Assembly (NCBI GenBank): GCA_964550845.1
Contig: CAZKAD010000001.1
Location: 21,342-85,341 of the forward strand
Length of the DNA: 64,000 nt
Direction of reading: 5' to 3'
DNA from: an uncultured Gammaproteobacteria bacterium
Lineage (GTDB): Bacteria; Patescibacteriota; Patescibacteriia; Magasanikbacterales; UBA922
The translations under genes and the position numbers were made by a program. Under the pieces are notes generated by a model. It saw only the letters and a program-made list of their open reading frames with translations, was not told where the DNA came from and did not search any database. Below, piece by piece: positions 2,824 through 59,589 of the stretch (position 1 is its first letter; each line of letters starts with the position of its first letter).

Positions 2824-5781
2824 ATGTCACAGCTCACAACAGGAACTGCGTATATTTTTTCATGGTTTGCGGAAGATGACGGAATGATCCATGCATTCGG
2901 AATGACTCCAGAAAACGAAACTGTTCACTTAATTATTCTCAACTTTACTCGATATTGTTATATTGAATTACCTCCCGAAATTGACTGGGACAATCCAATT
3001 CATCAACGAAGTTTCCAAGAAGCTGTTGGATCAATGAATCAAGAAATTTATCCTCAACAAATGGTCTTTATGAAAAAGCATCGATTGTATCGAGCTCATA
3101 TGGTCAAAACCGATCAAGGTTATCAACGATGTTTATTCCCTTATCTTTTTGTTTGTTTCAAAACGCAAAAGGCAATGATTGATTTCACTCGTCGAGTTAG
3201 TTGGGGAATCTATATTGAATCAATTGGAAGAAAAATTAATTTACGTTCGCATGAACAAGACGCAAGTCCTTTTTTGCAACTCGCAGTTTGTCGCAACATC
3301 CCAATTACCGGTTGGATTGACTTCACTGGAGTGAAGCAATCCGATGACTGGAATAGCTCTTATTGTAAACATGAATATGTACTCAATTGGAATACACTGT
3401 CTGCTTCGAAAGACCAAAAATTGCTCAAGACTTTGCCCAAAGTTAAAATCGTTTCTTTTGATTGGGAGGCAAACTCAACCAATCATAATCGAATGCCAAA
3501 TGAAAAGAAGCCCGGAGATGTCTTGTTTCAATGTTCGATGAGTGTGTTTGAACATGGATCGGATAAAATCGAAAATCATCTTTTGACTCTTGGTTATCCT
3601 GATCCAGCGAAAGTAAGTGAAGGAAGAACCGATCCAGTCAAAATTCATCACTACGCAACTGAAGCTGACATTTTGGAAGGATTTGCCAAAATGATCATTG
3701 AGCTCGATCCACAAGTGATTACCGGATACAATATCATGGGCTGGGATTTCAATTATATGATTGCCCGCGCTAAACTAAACAATGTCTATCAATCATTTTC
3801 CCAATTTGGATACATCAAAGGAATGTCTGCGAAAGAAAAGAACATTACCTGGTCAAGCTCCGCATTTAGCAAACAAAGTTTTTCTTATCCTGCAATTGCC
3901 GGACGAATTATTATTGACATGCTTCCTGTGATTAAAAGAGGGTTTAAGTTTGCCAGTTACACGTTGAGTAATGTTTCAGTTGAAATCCTCGGGCCGAATC
4001 AAACCAAGGATCCTCTCACTCCACAAGGCATTTTCAAATGCTTTCAAATTGGATCACCTGAGACACTATCGATAGTAGGCAAGTATTGTGTGAGAGATTC
4101 CGAAGTCACTTCGTTTCTGTTCCAAAAACTCAAGACTTGGGTTGACAGCTGTCAAATGTCAAGTATTATGGGTGTTCCGATCTTTGATCTTTCGACACAA
4201 GGACAACAAGTTAAGATTTACGCTCAAATTTATCGAGATTGTTTTCTTAAGAATACGGTCGTTGAAAAGAATGGCTATGTCTGTGAAAAAGACGAGAGTT
4301 ATACCGGTGCAATCGTGTTGACACCTATTCCAGGTCTTCATGAAAATGTGGTTACGTTTGATTTCGCCAGTCTGTATCCATCAGTAATTGTGGAAAAGAA
4401 TATTTGTTATTCGACTTGGGTGATTGATCCAAATATTCCAGATGAAGATTGTCACGTACTTGAATGGGAGGATCATATTAATTGTCCTCATGATACCGAA
4501 AAAAGATCCGACAAAAAGAAAGTGATGTGTGCGAAACGTAAATATCGATTTCTTAAGACTCCGCAAGGAATTTTGCCAAATATTCTCACGCGATTGACTG
4601 CTGAAAGAAAGAAAGTGAAGAAAGAGCTCGAGGGGGTTGAAGAAAAGGAGAAGGAAGAAAAAGATCCTATGTTGAAGAAAGATTTGAAGATGTATGCAAC
4701 CATTCTTGACATGACTCAAATTGCAATTAAAACTGTATCCAATAGTATGTATGGTGTGATGGGTGTTACCGAAGGCCGACTGCCTTTTATGCCAGGTGCA
4801 ATGTCGACTACCGCTGGTGGTCGAGCTGCAATTATGAAAGCGAAGAAAATCATCCTTGATCGTCATCCTGGCAAAGTTATTTATGGTGATACCGATTCGT
4901 TGATGTATATCTTCGATGATATGAAGCGTTTCGAAGATGAAAAGGGGAAGATCGATTACAAAGCTCTTGAAAAGTTCTGCAACAAAGTGTCAGAGGAAAT
5001 CTCTTGTCACTTTGCAAAACCGATGAAACTCGAATTTGAAAACATTGCGGAACAATTCTTTATTTTAACCAAGAAAAGATACATTTCAAAACTCAGTAAT
5101 GGAAAAGTTAAAAAGCGAGGTATCATGTTAACTCGACGAGATAACGCCGCTTGCTCGAGAAAAGCTTATGAAGGATTGCTTAATCTTATCTTTCAAAAGG
5201 CACCCCTGGATAAAATTTTTGACTATATTGTTGAAGCTCTCAATCAAATCTATAGCCATTATTACCCAAGCAAAGATTATGCAATCACAAAGAGTATCAA
5301 AGACATCGATACTTACAAAGTCAAAGCTCTTTCAACCGAACTAGTCGCTCGTCAACGACAATTGAAGAATAAGTTTCTTCCTTATGTTGAACCAAACAAT
5401 CCACAGGCCTCGAAGATCGAAGATGAATACAAATTTCGATCTTTGCCAGCCCATGTTCAGTTGGCTGAAACAATGAGATCAAGAGGGTCAATTGTTGAGT
5501 CTGGAAGTCGATTTGCTTATGTAGTGACTACTAAAGGTGGTCCTTCGGGAAAAATGTGGCAAAAGATCGAAAGTCTTGAATATTATTCTCGTCATCAGGG
5601 AATGATCAATTTAGATAGCAATTACTATGGCAAGGCCCTGATTAATCCGTTTGATGAAGTACTTCAAATCATGTTCCAACGACAAAATTTTACTAAACAA
5701 CAACACAAAATTCGTCTGCAAAAATATGAGATGCTCCAAGAGCTGAAGAGATTGATGGCTCCTCAACTTATTGCTGAATAA
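2824..5781 (+). CDS. polB: DNA polymerase, family B
   Basis: Exo I SFDWE, motif A FDFASLYPS, motif B KTVSNSMYG, motif C YGDTDS. 985 aa, uninterrupted. Confidence 0.97.
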   Translation: MSQLTTGTAYIFSWFAEDDGMIHAFGMTPENETVHLIILNFTRYCYIELPPEIDWDNPIHQRSFQEAVGSMNQEIYPQQMVFMKKHRLYRAHMVKTDQGYQRCLFPYLFVCFKTQKAMIDFTRRVSWGIYIESIGRKINLRSHEQDASPFLQLAVCRNIPITGWIDFTGVKQSDDWNSSYCKHEYVLNWNTLSASKDQKLLKTLPKVKIVSFDWEANSTNHNRMPNEKKPGDVLFQCSMSVFEHGSDKIENHLLTLGYPDPAKVSEGRTDPVKIHHYATEADILEGFAKMIIELDPQVITGYNIMGWDFNYMIARAKLNNVYQSFSQFGYIKGMSAKEKNITWSSSAFSKQSFSYPAIAGRIIIDMLPVIKRGFKFASYTLSNVSVEILGPNQTKDPLTPQGIFKCFQIGSPETLSIVGKYCVRDSEVTSFLFQKLKTWVDSCQMSSIMGVPIFDLSTQGQQVKIYAQIYRDCFLKNTVVEKNGYVCEKDESYTGAIVLTPIPGLHENVVTFDFASLYPSVIVEKNICYSTWVIDPNIPDEDCHVLEWEDHINCPHDTEKRSDKKKVMCAKRKYRFLKTPQGILPNILTRLTAERKKVKKELEGVEEKEKEEKDPMLKKDLKMYATILDMTQIAIKTVSNSMYGVMGVTEGRLPFMPGAMSTTAGGRAAIMKAKKIILDRHPGKVIYGDTDSLMYIFDDMKRFEDEKGKIDYKALEKFCNKVSEEISCHFAKPMKLEFENIAEQFFILTKKRYISKLSNGKVKKRGIMLTRRDNAACSRKAYEGLLNLIFQKAPLDKIFDYIVEALNQIYSHYYPSKDYAITKSIKDIDTYKVKALSTELVARQRQLKNKFLPYVEPNNPQASKIEDEYKFRSLPAHVQLAETMRSRGSIVESGSRFAYVVTTKGGPSGKMWQKIESLEYYSRHQGMINLDSNYYGKALINPFDEVLQIMFQRQNFTKQQHKIRLQKYEMLQELKRLMAPQLIAE

Positions 5782-8770: not shown

Positions 8771-8845
8771 TTCCGAAAGACTCTTTGAAGTGGTTAAACG
8801 TCCGAAGAACTCTTTGAAGTGGTTAAACGTCCCATAGACCAATTA
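8771..8845 (+). repeat. TTAAAC-hairpin repeat array (29-bp unit, 2 copies plus partial)
   Basis: tccgaaRRactctttgaagtggttaaacg twice. Confidence 0.85.
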
Positions 8846-12754: not shown

Positions 12755-12850
12755 TTAAACGTCTCTTCAAGACTGGTTAAACGTCTCTTCAAGACTGGTT
12801 AAACGTCTCTTCAAGACTGGTTAAACGTCTCTTCAAGACTGGTTAAACAT
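12755..12850 (+). repeat. TTAAAC-hairpin repeat array (22-bp unit, 4.4 copies)
   Basis: ttaaacgtctcttcaagactgg with TTAAAC at 12755, 12777, 12799, 12821, 12843. Three more TTAAAC at 12675..12700. Confidence 0.95.
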
Positions 12851-13553
12851 TCCCATTCAATTGATTAAACGGAAATTCAATTTCAATCTTCAAGTTCAAT
12901 GTAAGATCAGAAAGATACCATGCTTCTCCTCGTCGATGAATATACGGAGTTTTGAATCTTGGTGTTTCAAATTGGTCGAGAAGATACATATCATGGAATG
13001 GCACTTTTTTCAGTTTAAATAGACTATAATCTTCATTTTGGATCATAAAGATAAATTCTTTGGTTCGTGGAAAGAACCACAAAACTGTCTCTTTGTACTT
13101 ATCAAAAAACTTCCGAGTTTCTTGATCGCAGAGCTTAAATTGAATTGCGCGCGGATTATTTTGAATCCAGTCGGCGACAGAATCGAAGTTTTCGAATTCT
13201 ATCTGAAAACTTTTCGATCCAAGAAATGTCCATCGATTATTCCTCTTTTGGAATGATGGTGCAGGACAATCTGGAAAATTACTACTTGAGATTTGTGCAC
13301 TATAGATTAAATTATCATCACTCGATTCTCGAAGTTTAAACAAAGCTTTATTTTCGGTTCTCTTTTGATCAATCATTAAAATTTGATGCTCATTTTTCGA
13401 CCAGTAAATCTTGAGTGGAGTATAATACCCCTCGACTTTACTCACTTTAAGTTCAATCATTTTAATCATTTCGGAAGGCTTAGCCATCGGGGATGGTTGA
13501 AAGTTGTTCAAATTCCAAATCGAATCAATAAAATTAATCAATTTCTTATTCAT
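12843..13553 (-). CDS. hypothetical protein
   Basis: Start taken at MNKKLINF (13553). The longer extension would overlap the divergent promoter and gene at 13598. Confidence 0.55.
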   Translation of the reverse strand: MNKKLINFIDSIWNLNNFQPSPMAKPSEMIKMIELKVSKVEGYYTPLKIYWSKNEHQILMIDQKRTENKALFKLRESSDDNLIYSAQISSSNFPDCPAPSFQKRNNRWTFLGSKSFQIEFENFDSVADWIQNNPRAIQFKLCDQETRKFFDKYKETVLWFFPRTKEFIFMIQNEDYSLFKLKKVPFHDMYLLDQFETPRFKTPYIHRRGEAWYLSDLTLNLKIEIEFPFNQLNGNV

Positions 13554-16274: not shown

Positions 16275-18800
16275 TCAAAATTCATTTTGAATTGGTATCA
16301 CAATCACGGGATCTTTGATTGCAGCCATCTTTAGAATCCGAAGTTGAGACTCAAGATCCTTAATCTTCTTTTCATAATCAAGTTGACGTCGTTTGAAATC
16401 ACTGGTTGTTTCTTGGAGTTTAAGTTGATTATTTTTCAAACCGTCTTCAAGTGTCTTAACATGTTGTTTCTTTCCTTCAAGTTGAGACTTCAGTTCTTCT
16501 TCGACAATCGATAATTTTGAATACTTTTCATGGAGTTGAAGGAGTTCTTCTTTTGTCTTTGTATCTTCCTCGGTTGGTTTCCACGTTTTACTCATATTCT
16601 CACGAAGAGTATTGTTTTCATCACACAAGTTAGCCACTTTACCTCGAAGTCCAATATTTTCTTCTTCTAAAGTTTGAGTTCGAACATTTGCAAATTTAAT
16701 TGCTTGTTCGGCAGTCTCATCTTTCTCTTTTAGCAATAAATCGACTTTACTCAATTGTCCTTCGAGTTGAGCAATTTTATCGAGATAATTTGTTTGATTC
16801 GCTCGAAGAGATTCAATTTCGATTATCTTTTGATTCAAATCATCCTGGCAATGTCGAAGATCATCTCGTGAACGATCCGCAACAGATCGAATATTTTCAA
16901 TTTCATTTTTCACTAATGAAATACTTTTCTGAAGTTCAGTGACTAACGCAGTTTTACTGTCAAGTTCTTCAGCCATCTTTTGGAATTGATCAAGTGATTC
17001 TTCATAATTAGCTGGCGTGAGAGTCGGTTGAACAATCAAATTGTATTCTTTCTTAAAGTCTTTCACATCGATACCTTTCTTTTCACAAAGTTCAATTAGC
17101 TTATTAAGATCTTTAGTCAAAGCTGAAATAATGATTTGTTGAGTAGCAAGTTTTTCATTCGCTTCAAAGAGAAGACGTTTGTATTCTTCAACATTCATTT
17201 CAAGATTAACCACCGGTTTGTTCAAAATGGTTTGAGTAATAGCACCAAATCTCAGCGTTGAAAGAGTTTCTTCATAATTGAATTTCGCAGGTGAACAAGT
17301 AATTACCAAATGAGTTTTACTGTTTCCACCGAGGGAATCGGTCAAAAGACGAGTCAATTTTGAATCTCGATATGGAATGAAACTCTTTTTTTCAGCCAAA
17401 CTTCGAATCACCAATCCAAGAGTCAATAATGATTTGTTAGTTGAACTGGCTTGCTTCAACAGCAATCCTTCAGCCTTTGTTTTCGCTACCTTTTCAGATC
17501 CGGCCAAATCGACAAACACTATTCGCGAGATAATTTTCTTTCCAGTCTTCAGTTCATTTTGTTGAAGATGCATCACCAGTACTGAATGACTTCTCGACGA
17601 ATGAGCGTTCATCGCCGTTTCAGCAACTGTTCGATTCAATTCTCCCTTTCTCATTACACGGACAGCATCTTCAAAACAATTGACATAAGTTTCAGTCACA
17701 TCTTCAATCCATAATCCTCGGAAACGATCCTCACGAATCTTTAGGTCATCGCGAAGAGGTGAGAGCAGATCTCGAATTCGCTCGAGATAAATTTCAACAT
17801 ATGACATGCTAACCAAAAATTCATATCCTTTTTTCCCACGAATCGCGGTAAATAAATCTTTGATTAACCGTGGAACTACACCCATCTCAGTTTCGGTTTT
17901 CCAGAGTTCTCCCTCCTGAGACAGAGCATCGGGATTGTCTACCGATGCAGCGTATCCAGTCATTGTAGTAGTTTTTCCTGAATTATGTGTAATAGTTCCA
18001 TCGGCAAGCAAAAATCGTTCAGGACGATCTTTAATCGGTTCAAGTTGAAATCCTGAATACAACCCCATTCCAACATCTTCAATTTCGAATGAATAAGTTT
18101 CAAGGCCCTTCGAGGCCGGTTCAAGGCCCTTCGGGGTTGGTCCAATTTTCTTATCCTCTTTTCCGATCATTCGAACTCCAAGATAATCTTGTTTATTCTT
18201 TTGTTTCAATAGTTCCTTGACTGACATATCAATCAGCTTTGACTCAAATTGGAGTGTCAAAACGTGATCAAGATTCACCGTGTAAAAACTTTTCTTTTTC
18301 ACATCTCGAATTTTAAACATATGTGAAATTCCAGTAAACAACTTGATCACTTCTCGAACATTTCCTTTTTCGTCAACAAGTTTGTCACCGACTTGAACAT
18401 CTCGTGCTTGAATAATAGATCCATCGATCAGTAAGATTAGTGTCTCAGGAGAAAGGCATCCAGACTGACCATAAGCAAAGATAGTTGCATTGTATCCTTG
18501 AAGAATCTCATCAAGTAAAGGTTTACCAACAGCTTGATATACTTGTTCTTGAGTTGCTTTTTCTTCAAACACTTTGTCGTAATAATATCGATTATCTTTT
18601 ACCTCTTGTGGAAGATTAACAACGTTCCCATTCACCACAATCATTCGATTACCTCCATTTTTTAATTCCGTTTCATTACAAGGGCGAAATCGACAAAAAA
18701 CTTTAACATTTCGATCATCTCTTGGCTCTGTCTCATCCGATTTTTTAGACTCTGGTTTAGACTCTCGGGGAGAAAATGGTTTTGATTTTGCTTTCATCAA
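16275..18800 (-). CDS. kinesin motor protein (N-terminal motor, C-terminal coiled coil) interrupted by a mini-intein
   Basis: Switch I SSRSHSV, switch II DLAGSEK, NKSLLTLG, IPYRDSKLTRLL. P-loop split GQSG/SGKTTTM. Long heptad-rich tail. Confidence 0.93.
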   Translation of the reverse strand: MMKAKSKPFSPRESKPESKKSDETEPRDDRNVKVFCRFRPCNETELKNGGNRMIVVNGNVVNLPQEVKDNRYYYDKVFEEKATQEQVYQAVGKPLLDEILQGYNATIFAYGQSGCLSPETLILLIDGSIIQARDVQVGDKLVDEKGNVREVIKLFTGISHMFKIRDVKKKSFYTVNLDHVLTLQFESKLIDMSVKELLKQKNKQDYLGVRMIGKEDKKIGPTPKGLEPASKGLETYSFEIEDVGMGLYSGFQLEPIKDRPERFLLADGTITHNSGKTTTMTGYAASVDNPDALSQEGELWKTETEMGVVPRLIKDLFTAIRGKKGYEFLVSMSYVEIYLERIRDLLSPLRDDLKIREDRFRGLWIEDVTETYVNCFEDAVRVMRKGELNRTVAETAMNAHSSRSHSVLVMHLQQNELKTGKKIISRIVFVDLAGSEKVAKTKAEGLLLKQASSTNKSLLTLGLVIRSLAEKKSFIPYRDSKLTRLLTDSLGGNSKTHLVITCSPAKFNYEETLSTLRFGAITQTILNKPVVNLEMNVEEYKRLLFEANEKLATQQIIISALTKDLNKLIELCEKKGIDVKDFKKEYNLIVQPTLTPANYEESLDQFQKMAEELDSKTALVTELQKSISLVKNEIENIRSVADRSRDDLRHCQDDLNQKIIEIESLRANQTNYLDKIAQLEGQLSKVDLLLKEKDETAEQAIKFANVRTQTLEEENIGLRGKVANLCDENNTLRENMSKTWKPTEEDTKTKEELLQLHEKYSKLSIVEEELKSQLEGKKQHVKTLEDGLKNNQLKLQETTSDFKRRQLDYEKKIKDLESQLRILKMAAIKDPVIVIPIQNEF
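17982..18458 (-). other. mini-intein (159 aa, Hint domain, no endonuclease) inside the kinesin P-loop
   Basis: Begins CLSPETLILLIDGS (block A), has internal TVNLDHVLTL (block B-like), ends FLLADGTITHN followed by +1 Ser. Excision restores GQSGSGKT. Confidence 0.85.
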
Positions 18801-18880: not shown

Positions 18881-18947
18881 TTAAACATCCTAAAGAACCG
18901 GTTAAACATTCGAAAGACCGGTTAAACATTCGAAAGGAAAATTAAAC
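18881..18947 (+). repeat. TTAAAC-hairpin repeat array (20-21 bp unit, about 3 copies)
   Basis: ttaaacattcgaaagaccgg. Lies between AAAATTGA (18856) and the ATG8 start codon. Confidence 0.9.
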
Positions 18948-31628: not shown

Positions 31629-32033
31629 TTAAAATTCAGGAATCGATTTCGGTTTGGACAATTCGGATGGCCAGATCCACAGGCCTGAATTTTCTTTGTC
31701 AACATAAGTATTCCATCCTTTTGTCTTCAATTCTTGTTCGGCTACTTTAACCAAACCAACAAATTCTTCGACACGAATATCTCTCTTCTTTCGAAAGTCG
31801 GCCAATGAAAATGGATCTTCGAATGGAAGCATAACCGAATTTGATAGTTCGATTGTCGACAGATTGATCGGTTTATCGGCAAATTTTTCCTCTTTGGTGG
31901 CTGTCTTCGCTTGACGAACCTTTAAGAAATGTTCATAAATCGCTTCTCGAAGATATTGTTGATTTCGATTCAAATCGGTTGTCGCGAAAGTTTTCCAATT
32001 CGCGGGAATAAATGTTGCTGGAAATTCTTTCAT
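31629..32033 (-). CDS. hypothetical protein
   Basis: 134-aa ORF. Confidence 0.6.
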   Translation of the reverse strand: MKEFPATFIPANWKTFATTDLNRNQQYLREAIYEHFLKVRQAKTATKEEKFADKPINLSTIELSNSVMLPFEDPFSLADFRKKRDIRVEEFVGLVKVAEQELKTKGWNTYVDKENSGLWIWPSELSKPKSIPEF

Positions 32034-32061
32034 TTTGTATGACGAAAGAGCGTTTAATTGA

Positions 32062-32165
32062 ATTACTTCGTCTTCCGAGAAACATTTTGGCGTTTCTCGG
32101 ATTACTTCGTCTTCCGAGAAACATTTTGGCGTTTCTCGGATTATATCGTCTTCCGAGAAACATTT
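32062..32165. repeat. 39-bp tandem repeat, about 2.7 copies, each with a 9-bp-stem hairpin
   Basis: attacttcgtcttccgagaaacattttggcgtttctcgg, with stem ccgagaaac/gtttctcgg. Confidence 0.92.
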
Positions 32166-32214
32166 AAAATGAAATAAACCTTGGCAGATCTTTGAAAAAG
32201 AAAGTTCTATTTTA

Positions 32215-32222
32215 AAAATTGA
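32215..32222 (+). promoter_or_regulatory. AAAATTGA promoter-like octamer
   Basis: 36 nt upstream of ATG 32258. Confidence 0.65.
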
Positions 32223-32257
32223 ACTGAAAAGATTTCCAGCTTAGAAATATATGGCTC

Positions 32258-33235
32258 ATGAGTTCGAAGTTAACAAGGCAAGATCTGATTGAACGACTCA
32301 AAAATGTTGGTTATACTTCATTAAGCAGATTAAGAAAGGGAGAACTTGAACAGCTTTATCTGAAGATGCAAAAACAAGAGGAGAAGAAAGAAGAGAAAAA
32401 CGTGACGTTCCGAGAAACTGTAAGTATGAACATTATTACACAAAATATATCGACTCCCTCGAGTATATCAAATCATTCGACTTCCTCGAACATAACAACT
32501 CTTTCGGAACGTCCTTCGAATCCTTCAACACGCTTACCCACATCAGAACGTTTAACAACCAGACGAAATAAAAAGCCTGATCCAGTGTATTTTGAAGAAG
32601 AATTTGAGAAACTTCGAAATACAGAGATATCAAAATATACCAAAATTGTTCAGCTTGGGCAACCAGGAAAAGAAGGCACTACTTATTTAGTGATGGATCC
32701 AGTTCGTCCTGAAAAACGATATGCAATGAAATGTTTCCGGAGAACAAAATCAGAAAATCGCCTTGCCGAAGAGGCTCATTATCAATGGATTGTTTCAAAA
32801 GCTGGGTTAGCACCAAAAGTATATGAATTTAATCCGAGAGAAAAGTACATTTTAATGGAAGCTCTTGATCGAACACTCCTTAATATTCTTCATGAAAATC
32901 ATGGAAAATTTCCCGAATCACTTCAACAGAAAGTGATTGATTTGTACAAACAACTTGACGAAACTGGTGTAGCAGTCAATGATGGAAATCCAAGGAATAT
33001 TATGGAGAAAAATGGGAAACTTTATATGATTGATTATGGACTAGCTAAATTTTCGAATTCTTCTTCATTTCGCAAGTATCCAACACCAAATATGACGTTA
33101 CTTCCAAATGCCCTCTTTTTCTATATCAAAGAGAAGTTCGATACACGCGATTGGACATTACTTCGAAAATTGGTTCCAGCTGAAGCACTTCGAGAATACG
33201 ATCGATCATATTTACTCAAACATCAAAAGAGATAA
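32258..33235 (+). CDS. HeH/SAP-like motif plus atypical protein kinase
   Basis: N-terminus LTRQDLIERLKNVGYTSLSRLRKGELEQLYLKM. Kinase GKEGTTYLV, YAMKCF, NDGNPRNIM, MIDYGLAKF. Confidence 0.7.
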   Translation: MSSKLTRQDLIERLKNVGYTSLSRLRKGELEQLYLKMQKQEEKKEEKNVTFRETVSMNIITQNISTPSSISNHSTSSNITTLSERPSNPSTRLPTSERLTTRRNKKPDPVYFEEEFEKLRNTEISKYTKIVQLGQPGKEGTTYLVMDPVRPEKRYAMKCFRRTKSENRLAEEAHYQWIVSKAGLAPKVYEFNPREKYILMEALDRTLLNILHENHGKFPESLQQKVIDLYKQLDETGVAVNDGNPRNIMEKNGKLYMIDYGLAKFSNSSSFRKYPTPNMTLLPNALFFYIKEKFDTRDWTLLRKLVPAEALREYDRSYLLKHQKR

Positions 33236-33275
33236 AATTGATATTCGATGTTTGAGTAAAACATCAAAAGAGATA

Positions 33276-33283
33276 AAAATTGA
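33276..33283 (+). promoter_or_regulatory. AAAATTGA promoter-like octamer
   Basis: 27 nt upstream of ATG 33310. A duplicated copy lies at 33234..33241. Confidence 0.6.
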
Positions 33284-33309
33284 TCTCCCATTTTATTCTA
33301 CAATTCAAA

Positions 33310-34415
33310 ATGAACTTCCTCATTACACACGGTCCTTGTCTTGATGGTGAAACTTGCGCTTTGTTTCTCAAACAATGGGCAGATGAGCAAAAAGAAACAT
33401 TGCAAACGGTATTTTGTTTCGCTGGGCAACTTTCAGTTGATTTGATTAAGAGGAAAATGCCTGAGAATACATGTCGAATCTTTATTTGCGATTTGACTGT
33501 GAATCAAGAAACACTCGAATATCTTAATAATCTGAACAAAGAAGTCTGGATCATCGATCATCATCGATCATCATCGATCATCATCAAAAACTTTCCAATG
33601 TTCCTGAAAAAATTACTTATCTTCATCGAGATCGTTGTGCGGCGTGGATTGTTTGGGAAAAATTTCGATCGAATTCTGAAGCAGTCACTCCAATTCTTCG
33701 GGGAGTTCAGCCTGAACTTCTTCAATATATCGACGAACAAGACCGAGGTCTTCATCACCGTCCTTATTTGAAAGAAATCATTTCTGCAGTTCATTTTGAG
33801 AAGAAGAGGATTGGACTTGAAAGAGTGTTTCAAGAATTTTCTGTCGATCGATATATTCAAATCGGAACGATTCTTGCTGAATATCGAAAAACCCAGGTCG
33901 ATGAGATGATTAAATATGGCTACAAACGAAAGTTTAATTGGAAGGGAAAAGAATATAACGTCTTGTTGATGAGTGGAGATCGAACTCTCCGAAGTGAGGG
34001 TCTCGAAGAATCAAAGGCTGACATTACCATGTTTTACACTTACGATGCAGCAACGAATGAATTTTGGGTTGCTTGTCGAAGTCAAGAACTTGATCTTTTG
34101 CCTATCATTTCAAATATCACCTGGTGTAGCGGGAATGAATTTCGAAAAGGTGGAGGGCATCCTAAAGCTTGCGGTTTTACCGTCAATCAAGCAACCACCT
34201 TCGAATTCATCACAATGATGGAAGGATCGGTGTCGCCTGCAAGTTATCATCAACCGAGTCAGACAGGATATAAAATTGAGCTACAGGGACTTGTCCCGCA
34301 AAAGTTTTGCTTTCCAATTTTCTTCCATAGTTGGATTAACGATTTGCTCAAAGCAATTGAGAAATTTGATCAAGTAATTTCTGAAGGGACTTCGAGGGTT
34401 GACGAAATTTATTAA
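33310..34415 (+). pseudogene. DHH/DHHA1 phosphoesterase disrupted by a frameshift in a 3x 10-bp repeat
   Basis: Motif I THGPCLDGETCA and motif III IIDHH lie in frame 1. Continuation ...QKLSNVPEKITYLHRDRCAAW... and DHHA1 GGGHPKACGF lie in the frame of ORF 33768..34415. The junction is at GATCATCATC x3. Confidence 0.75.
33556..33585 (+). repeat. 10-bp tandem repeat x3 (GATCATCATC, encodes DHH)
   Basis: Exact copies at 33556, 33566, 33576. Confidence 0.95.
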
Positions 34416-34525
34416 ACGTCTCTTCGAGACTAGTTAAACATCGAGACGATTGGTTAAACGTTCCGGAGGAACTGATTAAACGTTCCGGAGGAACTGATTA
34501 AACATTCCGGAGGAACTGATTAAAA
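34412..34525 (+). repeat. TTAAAC-hairpin repeat array (22-bp unit, 5 copies)
   Basis: TTAAAC at 34412, 34434, 34454, 34476, 34498. Units ttaaacgttccggaggaactga. Confidence 0.95.
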
Positions 34526-34528
34526 ATC

Positions 34529-34558
34529 TTTTTTCTTTCCTCGAAAGGAAAGAAAAAA
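34529..34558. terminator. hairpin between convergent genes (12-bp stem)
   Basis: ttttttctttcc-tcgaaa-ggaaagaaaaaa. Confidence 0.6.
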
Positions 34559-34567
34559 TAATGAAAA

Positions 34568-34798
34568 TTATCCCGAGACATTCAAAATGACTCTCAATTG
34601 GTGCCATCGTCGAGAACACTCTTCTTGATCTTTGATATTTTCAAAAAGATAAGAGTCTCCATTGGCTACAGTTCGAATTGTAATTTGACATTCATTATTA
34701 GTGTCTTCTTTCGACACTTTGATAATCTTATGAGAATTTAAAAGCTGGCCGTCGAAAACGAAAAATTTATCACTCCAAATACTTGACTTATCCGACAT
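34568..34798 (-). CDS. hypothetical protein (76 aa)
   Basis: ORF with minus-strand AAAATTGA 42 nt upstream. Confidence 0.5.
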   Translation of the reverse strand: MSDKSSIWSDKFFVFDGQLLNSHKIIKVSKEDTNNECQITIRTVANGDSYLFENIKDQEECSRRWHQLRVILNVSG

Positions 34799-34839
34799 TG
34801 ATAATTAGGATAATTATATTTTTCGTCTGGTAAGAAAAT

Positions 34840-34847
34840 TCAATTTT
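34840..34847 (-). promoter_or_regulatory. AAAATTGA promoter-like octamer (minus strand)
   Basis: 42 nt upstream of minus-strand ATG 34798. Confidence 0.6.
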
Positions 34848-34864
34848 CATACTCAATCGAGAGG

Positions 34865-35998
34865 TTAATTTACCCTCAATCCGTATCGAGCTGCAAAGAC
34901 GTTTTCCAACCGCTTCTCTTCTTTTACGGTCATAAATTGTCCATTTTGAAAATAAACCAACCAGAGAGAAGCTTCATTGTACGACAAAGTTTGAATCATT
35001 TGATCAGGAAAGAAATTAATGATTAATTCCTCTCTCAGTCGATAATCCTTGACCAATTTGTCGGCTAATGTCTTCAATGACGATCCGAGTGAAGAAGGAA
35101 AAGATGAGATTAGTCCGTCTTCTTTCAGGCAAGCATAATCAATCATTGCAATCTCTTGTGGAGCTGGTCCATCAAAACATAATGCCAAATCAAAGTCAAT
35201 GATTGCAAATCCAGATCCTGAACGAACCAAGTTTCGAATGTAGAGATCATTGTGAACAATACCAATATGATGAAGTTTTTCAACCAAGGCCACAATCTTC
35301 TTTTGCTCGGCAGATGAAAATTTTCGAGCATGATCAAACGGGGTACATTGGGCAAGAATCGCCAAACCATATTGAACCTGACCAACTTGACAAACTTGAT
35401 AAGCGAGTAATTTCGCTCCAACTCCTGCCTTCCCAGCTCGCTGGAGCATTGTCAGCTCCCATTTAAATGCATCAAATCCTCGTTCACGAAGATCGGTCAG
35501 TTTGAATACAACATTTTTACCTCCATAAACTCCCTTGAAGACAACTCCTCCAGATCCTCTTCCAATCTCATCACCTTGTCCAAAATCTGTAAGACATTTA
35601 TCCATTGATGAATACATCTTGACCTGAATTTTTTGTCCAATTTCTTGGTAATCTTCAAGAGGAGAAGTTAGCAAAGCTTCTTCAGCTTCGGTACATTCAT
35701 TAATTGAAATATTACCTCCGGTTATAAGTCGATGCAAGAGTTCTGCAACTACATCAGCTTTATTTCCTGCAATTGGAGGATTGGCTTGTTTAGCAAGTTC
35801 TTGAATCTTTTTCGCTGAAGCATGAATAATTTCGATTGCACTTGGAGTCTGCAAAGCCCGATTTCTCTTTAAGAGCCGTTCGCGAATTTCACTAATTGAA
35901 TCTGACGAATAAAACGAAACCGGATATGCCAACTTCATATTCAACTCGAGGAGAGCCTTTTTTGTCTCGGCTCGGCGGATTTTTGCTTCAAGATCCAT
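34865..35998 (-). CDS. HeH/SAP-like motifs plus protein kinase
   Basis: AKKIQELAKQANPPIAGNKADVVAELLHRL. Kinase IGRGSGGVVFKG, VVFKL, IVHNDLYIRNLV, IIDFDLA. Confidence 0.8.
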   Translation of the reverse strand: MDLEAKIRRAETKKALLELNMKLAYPVSFYSSDSISEIRERLLKRNRALQTPSAIEIIHASAKKIQELAKQANPPIAGNKADVVAELLHRLITGGNISINECTEAEEALLTSPLEDYQEIGQKIQVKMYSSMDKCLTDFGQGDEIGRGSGGVVFKGVYGGKNVVFKLTDLRERGFDAFKWELTMLQRAGKAGVGAKLLAYQVCQVGQVQYGLAILAQCTPFDHARKFSSAEQKKIVALVEKLHHIGIVHNDLYIRNLVRSGSGFAIIDFDLALCFDGPAPQEIAMIDYACLKEDGLISSFPSSLGSSLKTLADKLVKDYRLREELIINFFPDQMIQTLSYNEASLWLVYFQNGQFMTVKEEKRLENVFAARYGLRVN

Positions 35999-42277: not shown

Positions 42278-42904
42278 ATGTCTTTTTTCAAAGATATAGA
42301 TCCATCAGAGTTTACATCTCTTACAGCAGAGTTAAAGTTTAGTACATTTGAAAGATTAGTTCATTTCATTCAACAAAGTAAAACTGAAAACTCTTATATC
42401 ACCTTAACTTTTAACCGGAGTATCACTGATACATTTGAGGCTAATGCTGAAGTTTGTAGATATTCAGATTCATCTTTCGTCATTCATATACATGTCGAAT
42501 TGAAAGAAGGTCAATCCTTAACTATTCCAAATATAGACGAAGTAAACATCGATCTTAAATATTTATCCACTAAACCCGACATTGATTTTCCGCAAGCAAT
42601 AGTAAAATTACTTTGTGATAGTTCAAGTAGAAATCAACTTGAACCAAAAGCTTTATCCATTTTACTTAATTCAACTTCAAAGCTAAGAAATCTTCCTTTC
42701 TTCTATACTTCATTACATGATAATAATGATGAAGAGCTCAAACTCAACTTTTTGATTCGATTGATGAGACTGGTTTGTTGTGGAATGAGCGAAGAGAATT
42801 CAAACATTTGGTCTACCTTTCTCACAAAAGAATTGTATGATCCTCGATTAATGATTCTGATTGCGCGATTCATCGATCAATGTTCAGATGTCTTACAAAA
42901 CTGA
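42278..42904 (+). CDS. LYDPR-box family protein, type II
   Basis: TSKLRNL...LMRLVCCGM...WSTFLTKELYDPRLMILIARF. Confidence 0.8.
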   Translation: MSFFKDIDPSEFTSLTAELKFSTFERLVHFIQQSKTENSYITLTFNRSITDTFEANAEVCRYSDSSFVIHIHVELKEGQSLTIPNIDEVNIDLKYLSTKPDIDFPQAIVKLLCDSSSRNQLEPKALSILLNSTSKLRNLPFFYTSLHDNNDEELKLNFLIRLMRLVCCGMSEENSNIWSTFLTKELYDPRLMILIARFIDQCSDVLQN

Positions 42905-42936
42905 TTTCCTCTCTTTTCGAAGAGAGGAAAGTAATA

Positions 42937-43571
42937 ATGTCACTCATTAAAGATGTCGATCTTTCAGAGATTATATCTTTGAAAATGGAACTTAAATTTG
43001 GTACCCCTGAAAAATTAATCCGTTTCATTCAACAAAATAAAGGCCAAAATTTTCAATGCAAATTGACCTTTAGCCGTAGTAAAACTGACACATTTGAGGC
43101 TGCTGTCGAAGTTCGCAAACTTTCGAAAATTTTCGTTGTTGATATGCATGTCGAGATGAAAGAAGATCAATCTATAACCATTCCGGATATAGATGAAATC
43201 AACATTAATTTTTCATATTTATCCGAAAAACCAGATATCGATTGCCCGGGAGCAAAAGTATATTTATACTGCGGTGGTTCAATTACTGATCAAATCGAGA
43301 TAGAAACTTTAACTATTTTACTTAATTCAACTTCAAAGCTGAGAAATCTTCCTTTCTTTTGCGTTCCATGGAACAGTATTGACAGAGAAATCTTCCTTTC
43401 TTTTGCGTTCCATGGAACAGTATTGACAGAGAGCTCAAACTCAACTTTCTGATTCGATTGATGAGACTTGTTTGTTGTGGTGTTTGTGAAGAGGATAATG
43501 TATGGCAATTCTTTTTGACTCAAGAATTGTATGATCCGAGATTACTTAGTGGCATTGCAGCGTTTAATTAA
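42937..43571 (+). pseudogene. LYDPR-box family member, type II, frameshifted by a 44-bp tandem duplication
   Basis: Reads ...TSKLRNLPFFCVPWNSIDRE, then duplicated unit 43341..43384 / 43385..43428. Removing one copy restores ...LKLNFLIRLMRLVCCGVCEEDNVWQFFLTQELYDPRLLSGIAAFN, with stop at 43569..43571. Confidence 0.75.
43341..43428 (+). repeat. 44-bp exact tandem duplication
   Basis: gagaaatcttcctttcttttgcgttccatggaacagtattgaca x2. Confidence 0.95.
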
Positions 43572-53866: not shown

Positions 53867-53934
53867 CGTCTTTTGGGTAGCGATTTAATTTCTAGAAATA
53901 ATTTTTGAAGATTTGAATTTTTCTTCGGGGGAGA

Positions 53935-53998
53935 TTAAACGTCCCGAAGGACTGATTAAACGTCCAAAGGACTGATTAAACGTCCCGAAGGACTGATT
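53935..53998 (+). repeat. TTAAAC-hairpin repeat array (20-21 bp unit, 3 copies)
   Basis: ttaaacgtcccgaaggactga x3, immediately upstream of AAAATTGA 54001 and the RPB1 start. Confidence 0.95.
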
Positions 53999-54000
53999 AA

Positions 54001-54008
54001 AAAATTGA
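54001..54008 (+). promoter_or_regulatory. AAAATTGA promoter-like octamer
   Basis: 43 nt upstream of the RPB1 ATG 54051. Confidence 0.65.
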
Positions 54009-54050: not shown

Positions 54051-56987
54051 ATGCAGATTGGAGAGGTGGTTGTACGTCTCCTATCACCAGAAGAAATATG
54101 TGCCTTTTCTGTTTGTGAGGTAAAGTATGAGAAGATTCGAAAGAACGATGATAATACTGAAACTCCAGCTGATCCAAGACTTGGAACTCTTGATGAAACA
54201 CCATGCAAAACATGTGGATGTGAATTTCGAGACTGTCCAGGGCACTTTGGTCATATTGTACTTGCAACGCCTATCATTCATCCTCTTGATCGATTTCCGA
54301 TTATTACGGCCGAACTTCTTTCTTGTTTTTGTAGCAATTGTTGTAGATTGCTAGTAACCCGAGAGATGTTAATGATTGAGCGAATAGGTAAATTGCAGAA
54401 AAATAAACGTCTCGCTAAAATCGTAGCTCTTTGTACGAAAATGGGTATTTGTTATCACTGTAATCAAAAAACATTGAAATATAAGCTTGATACCAGCTCG
54501 GGAAGAGCCAAAATCTATTCTCAAATAAAAACGATCACCGGAAACGATGATACCCCAGTTGAGATTCCCGTTGAACAAATTTACAACATTTTCTCCAGAG
54601 TCTTAGATGATGATCTTAAATTGCTTGGAATCAATCCAAAACAATTTCATCCCAAGAATTTGATTATACGTATCTTACCTGTATTGCCATTGAAAACAAT
54701 GCCTTATATTGTTACAGATAATGAAAAGAGAGAAGATGATTTAATGACTTTCTATCGAAATATCCTTAAGGTTAATTCAAGAATTCTTTCTCATTCATAT
54801 GTTGATCTTGACAAAGAGATTAGCAGTCTTGTCTTTTACATCAGTAATTTTATGGATAATTCAAAAAAGAAAGTTCGCCAACCGAACGGAAGAGCACATA
54901 AATCACTTCGTGAACTTCTTTCAAGTAAAAAAGGTCTACCCCGTATGTGCCTCCTTGGTAAAAGAGTGCACTATTCAAGTCGTACTGTAATTGGAGGTGA
55001 TCCAACTCTTGCGACTGACGAAATCTTTATTCCAAATTGCATTGCTTCAACTGTTTCTGTTCCAGAAACAGTCACTTCGTTCTCAAAAACCAAGCTTGAA
55101 GCACTGTTGAATAAGGGAGAGATTAATTTTATCTCTCGAATCGAGAATGGAACGAAGCGTGTACTCAATCCAAGAATTGCAACCAAAACACAAGGAACAA
55201 TCTTACTTCCGGGTGACAGAGTCTTTCGAAATGAGGTTGAAGTTAAACTTCAACGGAGCGGAGATTTACGCCAAGGAGATCGAATTGTCCGAAAAGTGCT
55301 TAAAAATGGTCAAACAATTGAAGAAACTCTACACGCCGAAGAACCAAAGAAAAGATCTTTCCTTCTTCATGATGGAGATATTGCCCATCGATGGTTACAG
55401 AATGGAGACTGGGTGATTGTCAATCGACAGCCTTCTCTTCATGCTCAATCAATGCTTGGACTCAAAGTAAAACGAACCAATCAGAAACCTGGGAAATATA
55501 CATTTGAAGAACGATCAATTCGTCTTCCTCCAGATGCAATTACTCCTTTGAATGCAGATTTTGATGGTGATGAAAGTAATGTTCACAATCCACAAAATTT
55601 AATGGCAAAATCAGAATATGCAGTTTTAATTAACATTGCTAACAACATTATTGCGAATCAATCTTCAAGACCTTTGATTGGATTGGTGCAAGATGCTCTG
55701 ATTGGATGTTGGAAAATGACACAAGGATGGGTCCCAATTCCAGTCAGCTTGTTTCAAGATATGATTGTCACTGCAAATATCAGTCTTGAGAGAATTGATC
55801 AAGTCCGGCAAGTATATCAAAGGATTTTCGGCGATGGAGATAAATATCTCTATACTGGAAGAGGTATATTGTCGACTGCATTGCCAATTACTTTCAATTA
55901 TAGCTCAAAGAGCAAATCTTATAACTCAGAATCTCTTCAAATTGAAAGAGGTGTAATAATTTCTGGAGCTTATGGAAAAAGCTCGGTTGGAAATCGAAAC
56001 GGAGCAATCCATCATTTTCTCCGAGAAAAAGAAGCGATTCAATTTCTGACTAAAACTCATACTCTTGCTTACGCGTGGGTAGTTCAAAATGCAATCGGTG
56101 TTGGATTATCTGATTGTATTCCTCCGATTGTAGATAACTTCGGAATGATTCCACAAGCGCGCGAACATATTGAAGCAAGTTATCTGAATGCTGTCATTTC
56201 AGAAGAAATTATTTCAGGACGAATCGCGGAACTCTCAGTTTGTCGCGTCTTGAATAATGCTCGTAATGTTGGTCACAAGATTGCCAGTGAATTGATCGGA
56301 AATTCAAATCGAATCAAGCAAATGATTGATGCCGGGTCAAAAGGATCAATGAACAATTTGACTCAAATCATGGTAGCACTTGGACAAAACACCGTGTACA
56401 ACAGACGAATTCCAATGACAAATATTGATGGACTTCGTACATTGCCACATTTTTCAGCCAATAAAGATAATCTGGCTAAAAAATATGAAGAAAGAGGTTT
56501 TATTGATACTTCGTTCTTCAATGGATTGAATCCAATCCAATTCTTTAATCACGCCCAAACCGGCCGTGAAGGTATTGTTAATACCGGTGTCACTACTCGA
56601 GGTTTCGGATACATTCAGAGAAAACTCACTGCATTGTTGAAGAATATCACTATTGCTCAAGATTTTACTGTTCGAGATTGTGGAACAAATCAAATTGTTC
56701 AATTCATTTATGGAGAATTTGGTTTTGCTCCTTCGAAACAAAATCGAGATAAAGGTCAACTTTATGTTGATATCACGACAGCAATTGATAAAATTACAAT
56801 CGAATATGAACTTAAGCATCAGATTGAAGAAATTTCACTCTCAGAACAACAGAAGAGAGATGCTCAAGAAGAAATTGAAGCTGATCGAATCTCGATTGCA
56901 TCAGGTGCAAGTGATAATGATGGTTCTGCCTCAGAAGATTCTATCTCCAACGCAAGTGGAGATGAAAATGATTTTGATGACTTTTAA
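54051..56987 (+). CDS. RPB1: DNA-directed RNA polymerase largest subunit, N-terminal portion only (A'-like)
   Basis: LSPEEICAFSV, zinc sites CKTCGCEFRDCPGHFGH, NRQPSLH, NADFDGDE, bridge helix GREGIVNTGVTTRGFGYIQRKL, QFIYGEFG. Then an acidic non-homologous tail and stop. No trigger-loop region. Confidence 0.93.
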   Translation: MQIGEVVVRLLSPEEICAFSVCEVKYEKIRKNDDNTETPADPRLGTLDETPCKTCGCEFRDCPGHFGHIVLATPIIHPLDRFPIITAELLSCFCSNCCRLLVTREMLMIERIGKLQKNKRLAKIVALCTKMGICYHCNQKTLKYKLDTSSGRAKIYSQIKTITGNDDTPVEIPVEQIYNIFSRVLDDDLKLLGINPKQFHPKNLIIRILPVLPLKTMPYIVTDNEKREDDLMTFYRNILKVNSRILSHSYVDLDKEISSLVFYISNFMDNSKKKVRQPNGRAHKSLRELLSSKKGLPRMCLLGKRVHYSSRTVIGGDPTLATDEIFIPNCIASTVSVPETVTSFSKTKLEALLNKGEINFISRIENGTKRVLNPRIATKTQGTILLPGDRVFRNEVEVKLQRSGDLRQGDRIVRKVLKNGQTIEETLHAEEPKKRSFLLHDGDIAHRWLQNGDWVIVNRQPSLHAQSMLGLKVKRTNQKPGKYTFEERSIRLPPDAITPLNADFDGDESNVHNPQNLMAKSEYAVLINIANNIIANQSSRPLIGLVQDALIGCWKMTQGWVPIPVSLFQDMIVTANISLERIDQVRQVYQRIFGDGDKYLYTGRGILSTALPITFNYSSKSKSYNSESLQIERGVIISGAYGKSSVGNRNGAIHHFLREKEAIQFLTKTHTLAYAWVVQNAIGVGLSDCIPPIVDNFGMIPQAREHIEASYLNAVISEEIISGRIAELSVCRVLNNARNVGHKIASELIGNSNRIKQMIDAGSKGSMNNLTQIMVALGQNTVYNRRIPMTNIDGLRTLPHFSANKDNLAKKYEERGFIDTSFFNGLNPIQFFNHAQTGREGIVNTGVTTRGFGYIQRKLTALLKNITIAQDFTVRDCGTNQIVQFIYGEFGFAPSKQNRDKGQLYVDITTAIDKITIEYELKHQIEEISLSEQQKRDAQEEIEADRISIASGASDNDGSASEDSISNASGDENDFDDF

Positions 56988-56995
56988 CAAATTTT

Positions 56996-57019
56996 TTATT
57001 TACTCCGAGGAGTAAATAA
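56996..57019. terminator. hairpin between convergent genes
   Basis: ttatttactcc-ga-ggagtaaataa. Confidence 0.6.
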
Positions 57020-57746: not shown

Positions 57747-59537
57747 ATGGAACAAAAATATTCCCTTGAGGCTAAATATTCATTTGAAGGTGTTTCTCGT
57801 GATGAAATTTTGAAGGCGTACAAAGATAAGCTGGCCGAACAGCCAGCTGAATCGAAGATACCTCTCTTTTATCATCAATTGTACAATATCCGACAAATGC
57901 GCGAGCGAGAAAAGTCACTCTGCATCCCACTGAGTAATGATGACACTGTTCAATCGAGAGTTGGAATTTTGGGAGATCCTCCTGGAACCGGCAAGACGAA
58001 GACTGCAATTTTTGCAATCAAACAGTCTGGTCTCGATTGGCCAAAAACACCCTTCTACACGCAAACAATCCAAGTTTGTTCAAATATTGATGGCAACATC
58101 CGCATTGAACGAAAAGAAAGTTTCATTCGAACTCAGACGACCTGTATTATTACCAATGCGAGTATTTTGAATCAGTGGTTGGAAGAGTTGGTTCTTGCGA
58201 ATATCTCTTACAAAGCGATTCGCAATCATGCTGATTTTCAAACAGATGAAGTGTTTCGATATGAAGTGGTTGTCTGCGTTGATACGATGTATAACGATTT
58301 TGCTGCAAAGTTTCACACTCATGCTTTCAAAGCAATGTACTTCGATGAAATGGATAGCACCTATATTCCAAACATGGAAAGAATGGTGGCTGGATTTTAC
58401 TGGCTCATTTCAGCAACTTTTTCAACTGTGCTTGAGAAGGTCCTTCGTTCGAGAAATCTTCATTTTATGAAGCGATTGTTCAATGAAATTTTGAGCGATA
58501 CTTATTCACAAGAAGATTTGCTAAATGCAATTACGATTCTCTCTCCCGAAGATCTTCGAGATTTGAATCCATTGCCAGATTGTGCATACGTTTTTAACTA
58601 TGAAAATGAAGGATATCATCTTACTCAAGCTCTTTATCCTTTCTTGGACAAAGAGATCATTTCTATGATTGAAAGTGGGGATGTTTGGAATGTACCACAA
58701 AAAATTATTCGAGATACCGAACTTGAAAACTTGTATTCGGTATTGGTCGAAAAAATCGGTCAACAACTTCTTGAAACTGAAGAGAAGATGGCAAAGTATG
58801 CTGGTAAGAGCCTTGCCAAAAAGACCTACGAAGAATGGGTCAAACGAAATCAAATTGTAATCCGAAAGAGAAATCTTCTCTCCGAACTTATCCAGAAAGC
58901 AATGGAAAAACCATGCCCGACTTGTGGTGGGATTATGATTGAACCTCAATTGGCTCTTTGTTGCTATGCCAATGTTTGCTTGAAATGTGCAAAAGGAATG
59001 CACAAAGAAGACTGTAAGATGTGCAAGAAGAAATTCGTTCCCATCCCATTTTTTGAAGCAAAAGAAGATAAAGAAAAATATTGCCCATGTCAAGAAGGTG
59101 TATCAGAGGATGCAAATCTATCGACCAATATTCACCAACCGAAAACCAAGTTGGATCAGGTTCGAGAAATCTTAAAGCAAGGACAGAAAATTTTAATTTT
59201 TGCTTCCTCCAATGGATCGTTTGAAACTTTGACCAAGACGATTGTAGAGATTGGAAAGAAATCTCTTCTCTTCACTGGATCAAATGCAACTCGTGAAAAG
59301 TTACTCTCACAATTTAAATCTGGTAAAGTCGATTGTCTGATCATGAAAGATCAGAAAAATAGTGCTGGAATGAATCTCCAGTGTACGACAGATATTATCA
59401 TTTGGAATTACATGCCACCAGCGTTTGAAAGACAAGCTATCGGTCGAGCTGTTCGACCTGGTCTTGATCATGATGTCAAAATTCACCGATTCAGTCTCCA
59501 AGTCAAGTTCTTTAACGAGTCCCTTGAGGACGTTTAA
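57747..59537 (+). CDS. SNF2-family helicase with embedded RING finger (RAD5/RAD16-like architecture)
   Basis: GDPPGTGKT, MYFDEMDS, RING CPTCGG...CCYANVCLKC...CKMCKK, motif V/VI AGMNLQ...ERQAIGRAVRPG. Confidence 0.85.
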   Translation: MEQKYSLEAKYSFEGVSRDEILKAYKDKLAEQPAESKIPLFYHQLYNIRQMREREKSLCIPLSNDDTVQSRVGILGDPPGTGKTKTAIFAIKQSGLDWPKTPFYTQTIQVCSNIDGNIRIERKESFIRTQTTCIITNASILNQWLEELVLANISYKAIRNHADFQTDEVFRYEVVVCVDTMYNDFAAKFHTHAFKAMYFDEMDSTYIPNMERMVAGFYWLISATFSTVLEKVLRSRNLHFMKRLFNEILSDTYSQEDLLNAITILSPEDLRDLNPLPDCAYVFNYENEGYHLTQALYPFLDKEIISMIESGDVWNVPQKIIRDTELENLYSVLVEKIGQQLLETEEKMAKYAGKSLAKKTYEEWVKRNQIVIRKRNLLSELIQKAMEKPCPTCGGIMIEPQLALCCYANVCLKCAKGMHKEDCKMCKKKFVPIPFFEAKEDKEKYCPCQEGVSEDANLSTNIHQPKTKLDQVREILKQGQKILIFASSNGSFETLTKTIVEIGKKSLLFTGSNATREKLLSQFKSGKVDCLIMKDQKNSAGMNLQCTTDIIIWNYMPPAFERQAIGRAVRPGLDHDVKIHRFSLQVKFFNESLEDV

Positions 59538-59576
59538 CGAGTCCCTTGAGGACGTTTAACGAGTCCCTCGAGGACG
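59511..59576 (-). repeat. TTAAAC-hairpin repeat array, reverse orientation (22-bp unit, 3 copies)
   Basis: tttaacgagtcccttgaggacg x3. Overlaps the last codons and stop of the SNF2 gene. Confidence 0.95.
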
Positions 59577-59589
59577 TAGAAAGAAACTC

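Follow-up and report, generated by a model that had tools for sequence, protein, structure and literature searches.

The locus described here raises the question of why a gene that would otherwise read as a complete DHH/DHHA1 phosphoesterase is interrupted exactly at the codons of its own catalytic Asp-His-His motif, and which of the three options left by an earlier sequence-only reading, i.e. a recent pseudogenisation, a slippage-prone on/off switch or an assembly artefact, best accounts for it. The 64,000-nt stretch of DNA analysed (hereafter the window) carries genes for a family B DNA polymerase, the RNA polymerase Rpb1, a three-domain capping enzyme, a kinesin with a Hint domain, an XPG nuclease and several Ser/Thr kinases, and represents an intact, compactly organised genome of a nucleocytoplasmic large DNA virus; since open frames of 300 nt or more make up 94% of it, this genome is not decaying. 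Tandem Repeats Finder and direct reading delimited within it a period-10 tandem array, ATCATCGATC x3.6 with 100% matches over 36 nt (33550..33585), whose sequence is ATCATCGATC ATCATCGATC ATCATCGATC ATCATC. This equals ATCATC followed by three GATCATCATC units, i.e. the three exact copies of a 10-mer spelling D-H-H from which the sequence-only reading had started (its array start, 33547, counted in the TGG codon). The self-match run at offset 10 reaches 26 at the array, the maximum in 100 shuffles of the window being 15 (offsets 4-30); the array is perfect and stands far above chance. The features needed to follow the argument are these:

33550..33585, plus strand: tandem array, ATCATCGATC x3.6, 20 nt longer than the 16-nt stretch present in all other alleles.
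33552, plus strand: private silent substitution ATT>ATC in codon 81, ATT being present in 8/8 intact DNA loci (6 in the codon comparison).
33310..33771, plus strand: ORF1, 153 aa, ATG start and TGA stop, with native residues 1-85 followed by 68 out-of-frame residues.
33531..34415, plus strand: second open frame, -1 relative to ORF1, with native residues 83-361 from the third DHH copy.
33310..34415, plus strand: the whole disrupted gene, which minus 20 nt would encode a 361-aa DHH/DHHA1 (NrnB-like) phosphoesterase.

When the array is rebuilt with a single unit (16 nt), the gene becomes an uninterrupted 361-aa ORF reading ...VWIIDHHQKLSNVPEK...GGGHPKACGF..., matching the clean product of about 360 aa that had been anticipated for one copy. 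Four units also restore the frame, as had been claimed, but with a 10-aa insertion in a 371-aa ORF whose protein reads DHHRSSSIIIDHH; rebuilds with 0, 2, 3, 5 or 6 units are out of frame. In the state found in the window the first DHH (33556..33564) lies within ORF1, whose out-of-frame tail reads RSSSIIIKNFPMF..., and the third (33576..33584) leads into the second frame, which then includes motif IV (D138) and the DHHA1 GGGH. The ORF tool lists ORF1 from a TTG start at 33280, the ATG start being at 33310, and lists the second frame as ORF2 (33768..34415; TTG at 33768; 215 aa), though this frame is open from 33531. Both frames are open across 241 nt, the overlap previously reported for ORFs 33280..33771 and 33768..34415 having been 240 nt. 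The second frame offers an ATG only far downstream, near native residue 193, and nothing points to its being expressed independently. The initial description of the locus was correct in all its factual elements. Upstream of the gene start, the region 33213-33284 holds two direct copies of AACATCAAAAGAGATAAAA(A)TTGAT (33219-33242 and 33260-33284), the first of them overlapped by the inverted repeat TACTCAAACATC / GATGTTTGAGTA (33213-33224 / 33247-33258). In some alleles gene callers lengthen the DHH ORF by 19-20 codons upstream (MSKTLKEIKLISHFILQFK), the conserved start being the ATG at 33310.

Assignment of the restored protein to the DHH superfamily rests on its family profile and fold, not on the Pfam score of the single sequence. 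By itself it falls below the Pfam gathering cut-offs for both DHH (20.3 bits, cut-off 28.1) and DHHA1 (19.1 bits, cut-off 25.9), and its RecJ matches in NCBIfam are weak. A profile search over 1.84 billion representative proteins retrieved 161 relatives at E <= 1e-3. Within an 80-sequence alignment of the family, Pfam DHH is matched by 41/80 members and DHHA1 by 58/80, and the columns D12, G13, D61, D83-H84-H85, D138, R250 and G276-H277 are invariant; these can be assigned, on alignment, to DHH motifs I (second Asp), II (D61), III and IV (D138) and to the GGGH of DHHA1, which spans G274-G275-G276-H277, its first two glycines being conserved in at least 90% of the 80 sequences. The Asp-His-His of motif III follows strand 78-82 of the AlphaFold2 model, as expected at the end of a beta-strand. 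When the PDB was searched by sequence from the shallow alignment, no match came up; the deeper family profile matched 6mtz_A over its full length (E 2e-18) and, over the DHHA1 domain, also NrnA, GdpP, TM1595, Rv2837c and RecJ. Likewise, an earlier AlphaFold2 model from a shallow 17-sequence alignment was poor (pLDDT 47) and was superseded by one built on the 80-sequence alignment of distant homologues (pLDDT 90, pTM 0.82), which has a two-domain fold with a linker helix. All 50 Foldseek matches to the PDB at E <= 1e-3 belong to the DHH family (PAP phosphatase 8a8k, RecJ, Cdc45, DhhP, NrnA, PggH and family II PPase), and the best matches in a viral structure library were DHH phosphohydrolases of Marseillevirus LCMAC101, Lausannevirus, Klosneuvirus, Pithovirus LCPAC401 and Hokovirus, followed by jumbo-phage NrnB-like proteins. 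The identification first proposed from the letters is thereby borne out by the family profile, the Pfam matches across the family, 6mtz_A, the predicted structure and the Foldseek results, and the restored gene is confidently predicted to encode a DHH/DHHA1 (NrnB-like) phosphoesterase, a known class of viral accessory enzymes. The motif I region of the protein reads H7-G-P-C10-L-D12-G13, with D12 and G13 invariant and with Cys in place of the first Asp of the DxD in at least 90% of the family, the 6mtz equivalent in the profile alignment being D-L-D-G. This H-x-x-C-x-D-G is a peculiarity of the DHH subfamily and could mean an altered chemistry of the metal site.

The origin of the array can be read from its relatives. 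A word-index search led to two clusters of close orthologues, and the cluster look-up to 16 distinct intact proteins from many samples (Logan, ENA, JGI and NCBI). A single DHH, in the context WIIDHHQKL, is present in 16/16 of these intact alleles from other samples, and all eight intact loci read as DNA carry TGG ATT ATC GAT CAT CAT CAA AAA C (TGGATTATCGATCATCATCAAAAAC). The comparison of orthologues, which the sequence-only reading had proposed as a check, thus found the array in none of the 16 other alleles, and a duplicated DHH..DHH occurs in 0/172 family proteins examined. Pattern scans of viral_contigs and metagenome_contigs with the restored protein yielded no relatives, and the DNA pattern TGGATYATCGATCATCATC had no match in viral_contigs and 25 in metagenome_contigs, none of which aligns to the window, these being chance matches. 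Since all other alleles are in the single-copy state, the 20 extra bases are, by sequence comparison, derived and private to the strain of the window. The silent ATT>ATC change turns the flank ATTATC into ATCATC, creating a perfect 6-nt direct repeat with the next ATCATC 10 nt away; it is one of only four codon differences private to the window in 361 codons, and is unlikely to adjoin the array by coincidence.

The same alleles inform on selection. dN/dS values among seven alleles range from 0.11 to 0.28 (Nei-Gojobori), and the restored window allele gives 0.13-0.16 against its closest relatives (0.13 against L008, the closest), with no relaxation of selection seen downstream of the frameshift. 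These ratios indicate that the gene is under purifying selection and functional in the lineage, and the scarcity of private codon changes, together with the lack of downstream relaxation, points to a very recent break. As a separate observation, the DHH gene alleles are put together from alternative blocks in mosaic fashion (window 33856-33951 and 34090-34415), in combinations that differ by sample: residues 183-214 exist in two versions, AEYRKTQVDEMIKYGYKRKFNWKGKEYNVLLM or NEHRQRQIEEMIKFGYKRQMKWQGKDYQILFI, and a divergent C-terminal block is found in P0004, P0007, P0010, P0011, P0013 and P0014. This pattern suggests recombination between co-circulating strains.

We consider it probable, with reasonable confidence, that the window records a real and very recent allele in which a non-essential giant-virus DHH/DHHA1 (NrnB-like) gene has lost its function. 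Among the options initially listed this is the recent pseudogenisation, and it is upheld by the intact state of the other alleles, by purifying selection and by the almost complete lack of private changes. The ancestral sequence would have been TGG ATT ATC GAT CAT CAT CAA (W-I-I-D-H-H-Q), kept by every other strain. Written in ATC, GAT and CAT codons, I-I-D-H-H becomes (ATC)2-G-(ATC)3, a string that by itself forms a cryptic 10-nt direct repeat; with the silent ATT>ATC change the two 6-nt flanks became the same, which may have left the site prone to slippage. A first 10-nt duplication could have followed by slipped-strand mispairing between the ATCATC copies, or by a microhomology-mediated event, the resulting +1 shift being already null, and the 16 nt of repeat homology left by this duplication would have allowed a second unit to be added easily (1 to 2 to 3 units). 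Presumably the substitution came first and the expansions after it. The spelling of DHH by the repeat unit is a consequence of the motif and of the codons that write it, and is not evidence of design. The +20 nt shifts the frame directly after the first DHH, leaving a product that keeps residues 1-85 and lacks the helix that follows motif III, together with motif IV (D138), the linker and all of DHHA1 with its GGGH. Because motif IV, the linker and DHHA1 are all missing, the ORF1 product is expected to be inactive.

This reading supposes that the array exists in the virus. The exact ORF1 product (P0018) was recovered from three Logan assemblies (SRR10036080, SRR10036081 and SRR10036082) and the exact ORF2 product from SRR10036080 and SRR10036081, whose contigs reach the end of ORF2; both products are also recorded from an NCBI source (longest contig 259,314 bp). 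The three Logan contigs match the window with 100% identity across 1.8-2.5 kb, the 36-nt array included, and they and the window are the only carriers of the array, although the three runs are consecutively numbered and may be replicates of one sample or the NCBI contig's own reads, so that their independence is limited. An assembly or sequencing artefact would mean that the true genome holds one unit, or at least four collapsed to 3.6, and that the gene is intact. Besides the possible non-independence of the runs, this explanation draws on the appearance of the window as an uncultured-virus assembly, with polymerase relatives that are all environmental, and on the length of the array, 36 nt being the longest of the series that a de Bruijn graph with the k of the Logan assemblies (k=31) holds without a repeated k-mer. 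According to our computation, there is no repeated 31-mer with 1-3 full units, and repeated 31-mers appear from 4 units up (a 4.6-copy array), in which case an array of at least 4.6 units would form an equal-coverage loop. The behaviour of the Logan contigs at such loops can be seen upstream: the only repeated 31-mers in 32000..34900 are at 32062..32113, inside a 39-nt tandem array, and contigs L004 and L005 begin exactly at 32114, right after them and 1.4 kb upstream of the 10-mer array. These assemblies thus interrupt their contigs at k-mer loops instead of collapsing the loops, and since all three contigs cross the 10-mer array, a longer true array is unlikely. A one-unit template fares no better, as de Bruijn assemblers do not produce exact extra units from it; a precise 20-nt insertion is also atypical as an error on any sequencing platform, and four assemblies agree base by base over 1.8-2.5 kb. 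With the identical allele in three separately assembled read sets and in the NCBI contig, and with the k=31 argument, the artefact put forward by the sequence-only reading is disfavoured and we hold it to be quite unlikely.

The slippage-prone on/off switch is the remaining option of that reading. Such a contingency locus would change copy number at a high rate by slipped-strand mispairing, so that the viral population would alternate between ON states of 1 or 4 units and OFF states of 2 or 3, and it accords with a perfect array whose unit length is not a multiple of 3, with the in-frame state of both 1 and 4 units, and with a downstream frame that is undecayed and shows dN/dS like that of the intact alleles. 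The absent downstream decay would fit a reversible state, or a mutation arising during sampling or culture, equally well. However, the 16 other alleles not only are devoid of the array but have an ATT codon that interrupts even the cryptic repeat, and none of the 172 family proteins has a tandem DHH..DHH; the alternative ON state, with four units, would add RSSSIIIDHH (10 residues) to the catalytic motif. Only the three-unit state was found: exact look-ups of the 1-, 2-, 4-, 5- and 6-unit products among 15 billion proteins were negative, each of the three read sets was assembled through a single state, and no copy-number variation was detected among the four assemblies, in which ON and OFF states were not both seen. 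Three 10-nt units are, in addition, a weak slippage substrate in comparison with known contingency tracts. A switch thus goes unsupported, with a repeat absent in relatives, one copy-number state and a four-copy form that disrupts the catalytic motif, and we judge it quite improbable. Copy-number heterogeneity, if present, would represent a rare case of repeat-mediated gene switching in a giant virus, and nothing found points there.

A newly born variant of the same idea supposes that the silent mutation made a slippage tract, that ON and OFF variants then arose, and that the OFF form swept because loss of the enzyme was advantageous in the host. If true, it would be the first contingency-type locus in a nucleocytoplasmic large DNA virus; we give it only a slim chance.

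Programmed recoding, in which a -1 ribosomal frameshift or transcriptional slippage within the 241-nt zone would join ORF1 to ORF2 into a full-length enzyme, is suggested by the -1 frame of ORF2, the long overlap, one canonical heptamer (A_AAT_TTC at 33660, read in the frame of ORF1) and an A5 run after the array, but was rejected as extremely unlikely, given that neither site is followed by a stable structure (z 0.08 and -0.32 against shuffles), that the heptamer is ordinary native coding (E-K-F) of which about one is expected by chance per 80 AT-rich codons, that a shift at 33660 would replace native residues 86-111, including the conserved block before W106, and that the relatives are all single-frame, the arrangement being derived and not conserved. 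An A5 run is too short for efficient polymerase stuttering. Pressure from GATC methylation or restriction was likewise rejected (371 GATC sites observed and 392 expected, with no enrichment in the window), as was a DNA hairpin driving the expansion, the single-stranded fold of the array being no better than that of shuffles (z 0.60).

Other features of the window were recorded along the way. Intergenic tandem arrays with units of 20-29 nt (mostly 20-22) lie at 8772-8832, 12755-12880, 18881-18936, 34412-34524, 53933-54001 and 59511-59577; in most arrays the unit consists of TTAAACG and then a short hairpin whose stem varies by array (GTTCC/GGAAC, GTCT/AGAC, GTCC/GGAC). TTAAACG occurs 31 times in the window, 9.5 being expected, and often overlaps or directly follows a same-strand stop, the TAA of the DHH gene itself being inside TTAAACG at 34412-34418. 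These arrays may be a 3'-end or termination signal of the virus lineage. A second tandem duplication is found at 43341-43432, where a perfect 44-nt unit with the palindrome GTTCCATGGAAC is repeated 2.1 times at the 3' end of ORF 42880-43452; removal of one unit alters the C-terminus and extends the ORF from 190 to 215 aa, and this may be another case of a unit indivisible by 3 affecting a coding end.

On the minus strand, the ORF at 16275-18800 (841 aa) contains a kinesin motor domain (E 4e-95) into which a Hom_end-associated Hint domain is inserted (residues 115-190), separating the microtubule-binding part from the remaining motor; it has the appearance of a viral kinesin with an intein. The family B DNA polymerase (2824-5781, plus strand, 985 aa) is intein-free, whereas a relative with 95% identity (P0174, 1465 aa) carries an intein (PF14890), as do many that are more distant; the presence of the intein therefore varies between very close strains. 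Among named sequences the best polymerase match is to a mis-binned marine MAG (38% identity). The Rpb1 ORF (54051-56987, plus strand, 978 aa) ends just 64 positions into Pfam domain 5, and a second frame (56641-57015) is open across its last 346 nt, so this gene may be split, intron-interrupted or frameshifted.

For annotation, our analysis implies that the 153-aa and 215-aa ORFs should be taken as one frameshifted DHH/DHHA1 phosphohydrolase pseudogene and not as two hypothetical proteins. It also illustrates cleanly, in a natural sequence, how the codons chosen for a conserved motif (ATC ATC GAT CAT CAT) yield a cryptic direct repeat that one silent change renders slippage-prone, and suggests that at least one strain of the virus in circulation can do without the enzyme.

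Among known enzymes, the closest counterparts of the restored protein are the DHH phosphohydrolases of giant viruses (LCMAC101 A0A481YR33, Lausannevirus F2WKW5, Klosneuvirus A0A1V0SIW3 and Pithovirus LCPAC401 A0A481ZBZ3), with which it shares the DHH/DHHA1 fold (E 3e-18 to 1e-15, TM about 0.55-0.6). Literature searches on giant-virus DHH enzymes, and on the run and assembly accessions, brought up nothing specific. NrnB of Bacillus phage AR9 has the same two-domain fold (Foldseek E 5e-11, TM 0.49; 16% identity), and the bacterial NrnB-like protein 6mtz is the one matched over its full length by the family profile. The family of the window differs from these viral and bacterial enzymes in a C-terminal extension of about 60 aa and in the Cys at the first motif I Asp, its sequence identity, AR9 NrnB apart, being only 18-23%; the strain of the window differs further from the known viral phosphohydrolases in that its gene is frameshifted.

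With regard to the mutation itself, bacterial contingency loci undergo phase variation through coding repeats of 1-7 nt, as in Haemophilus, Neisseria and Campylobacter. The locus resembles them in having an intragenic repeat whose unit (10 nt) is indivisible by 3, with in- and out-of-frame copy numbers, but differs in that the tract is not conserved in relatives, is very short (3.6 x 10 nt) and shows no copy-number variation, and in that the alternative ON state would disrupt the active site. Streisinger-type slipped-strand frameshifts, i.e. tandem duplications between short direct repeats, are classical in phage T4 rII and lysozyme and are found in many pseudogenes. Here, likewise, the duplicated unit lies between copies of a short direct repeat (ATCATC, 10 nt apart), and the array, itself perfect, adds a length indivisible by 3, giving a frameshift null that would in principle be revertible by deletion. 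The locus departs from that model in the addition of two units instead of one, in the placement of the event exactly on the codons of a catalytic motif, and in the neighbouring silent substitution that seems to have perfected the repeat first. What we describe looks like an ordinary frameshift produced by this well-known mutational process, rather than a new mechanism or switch.
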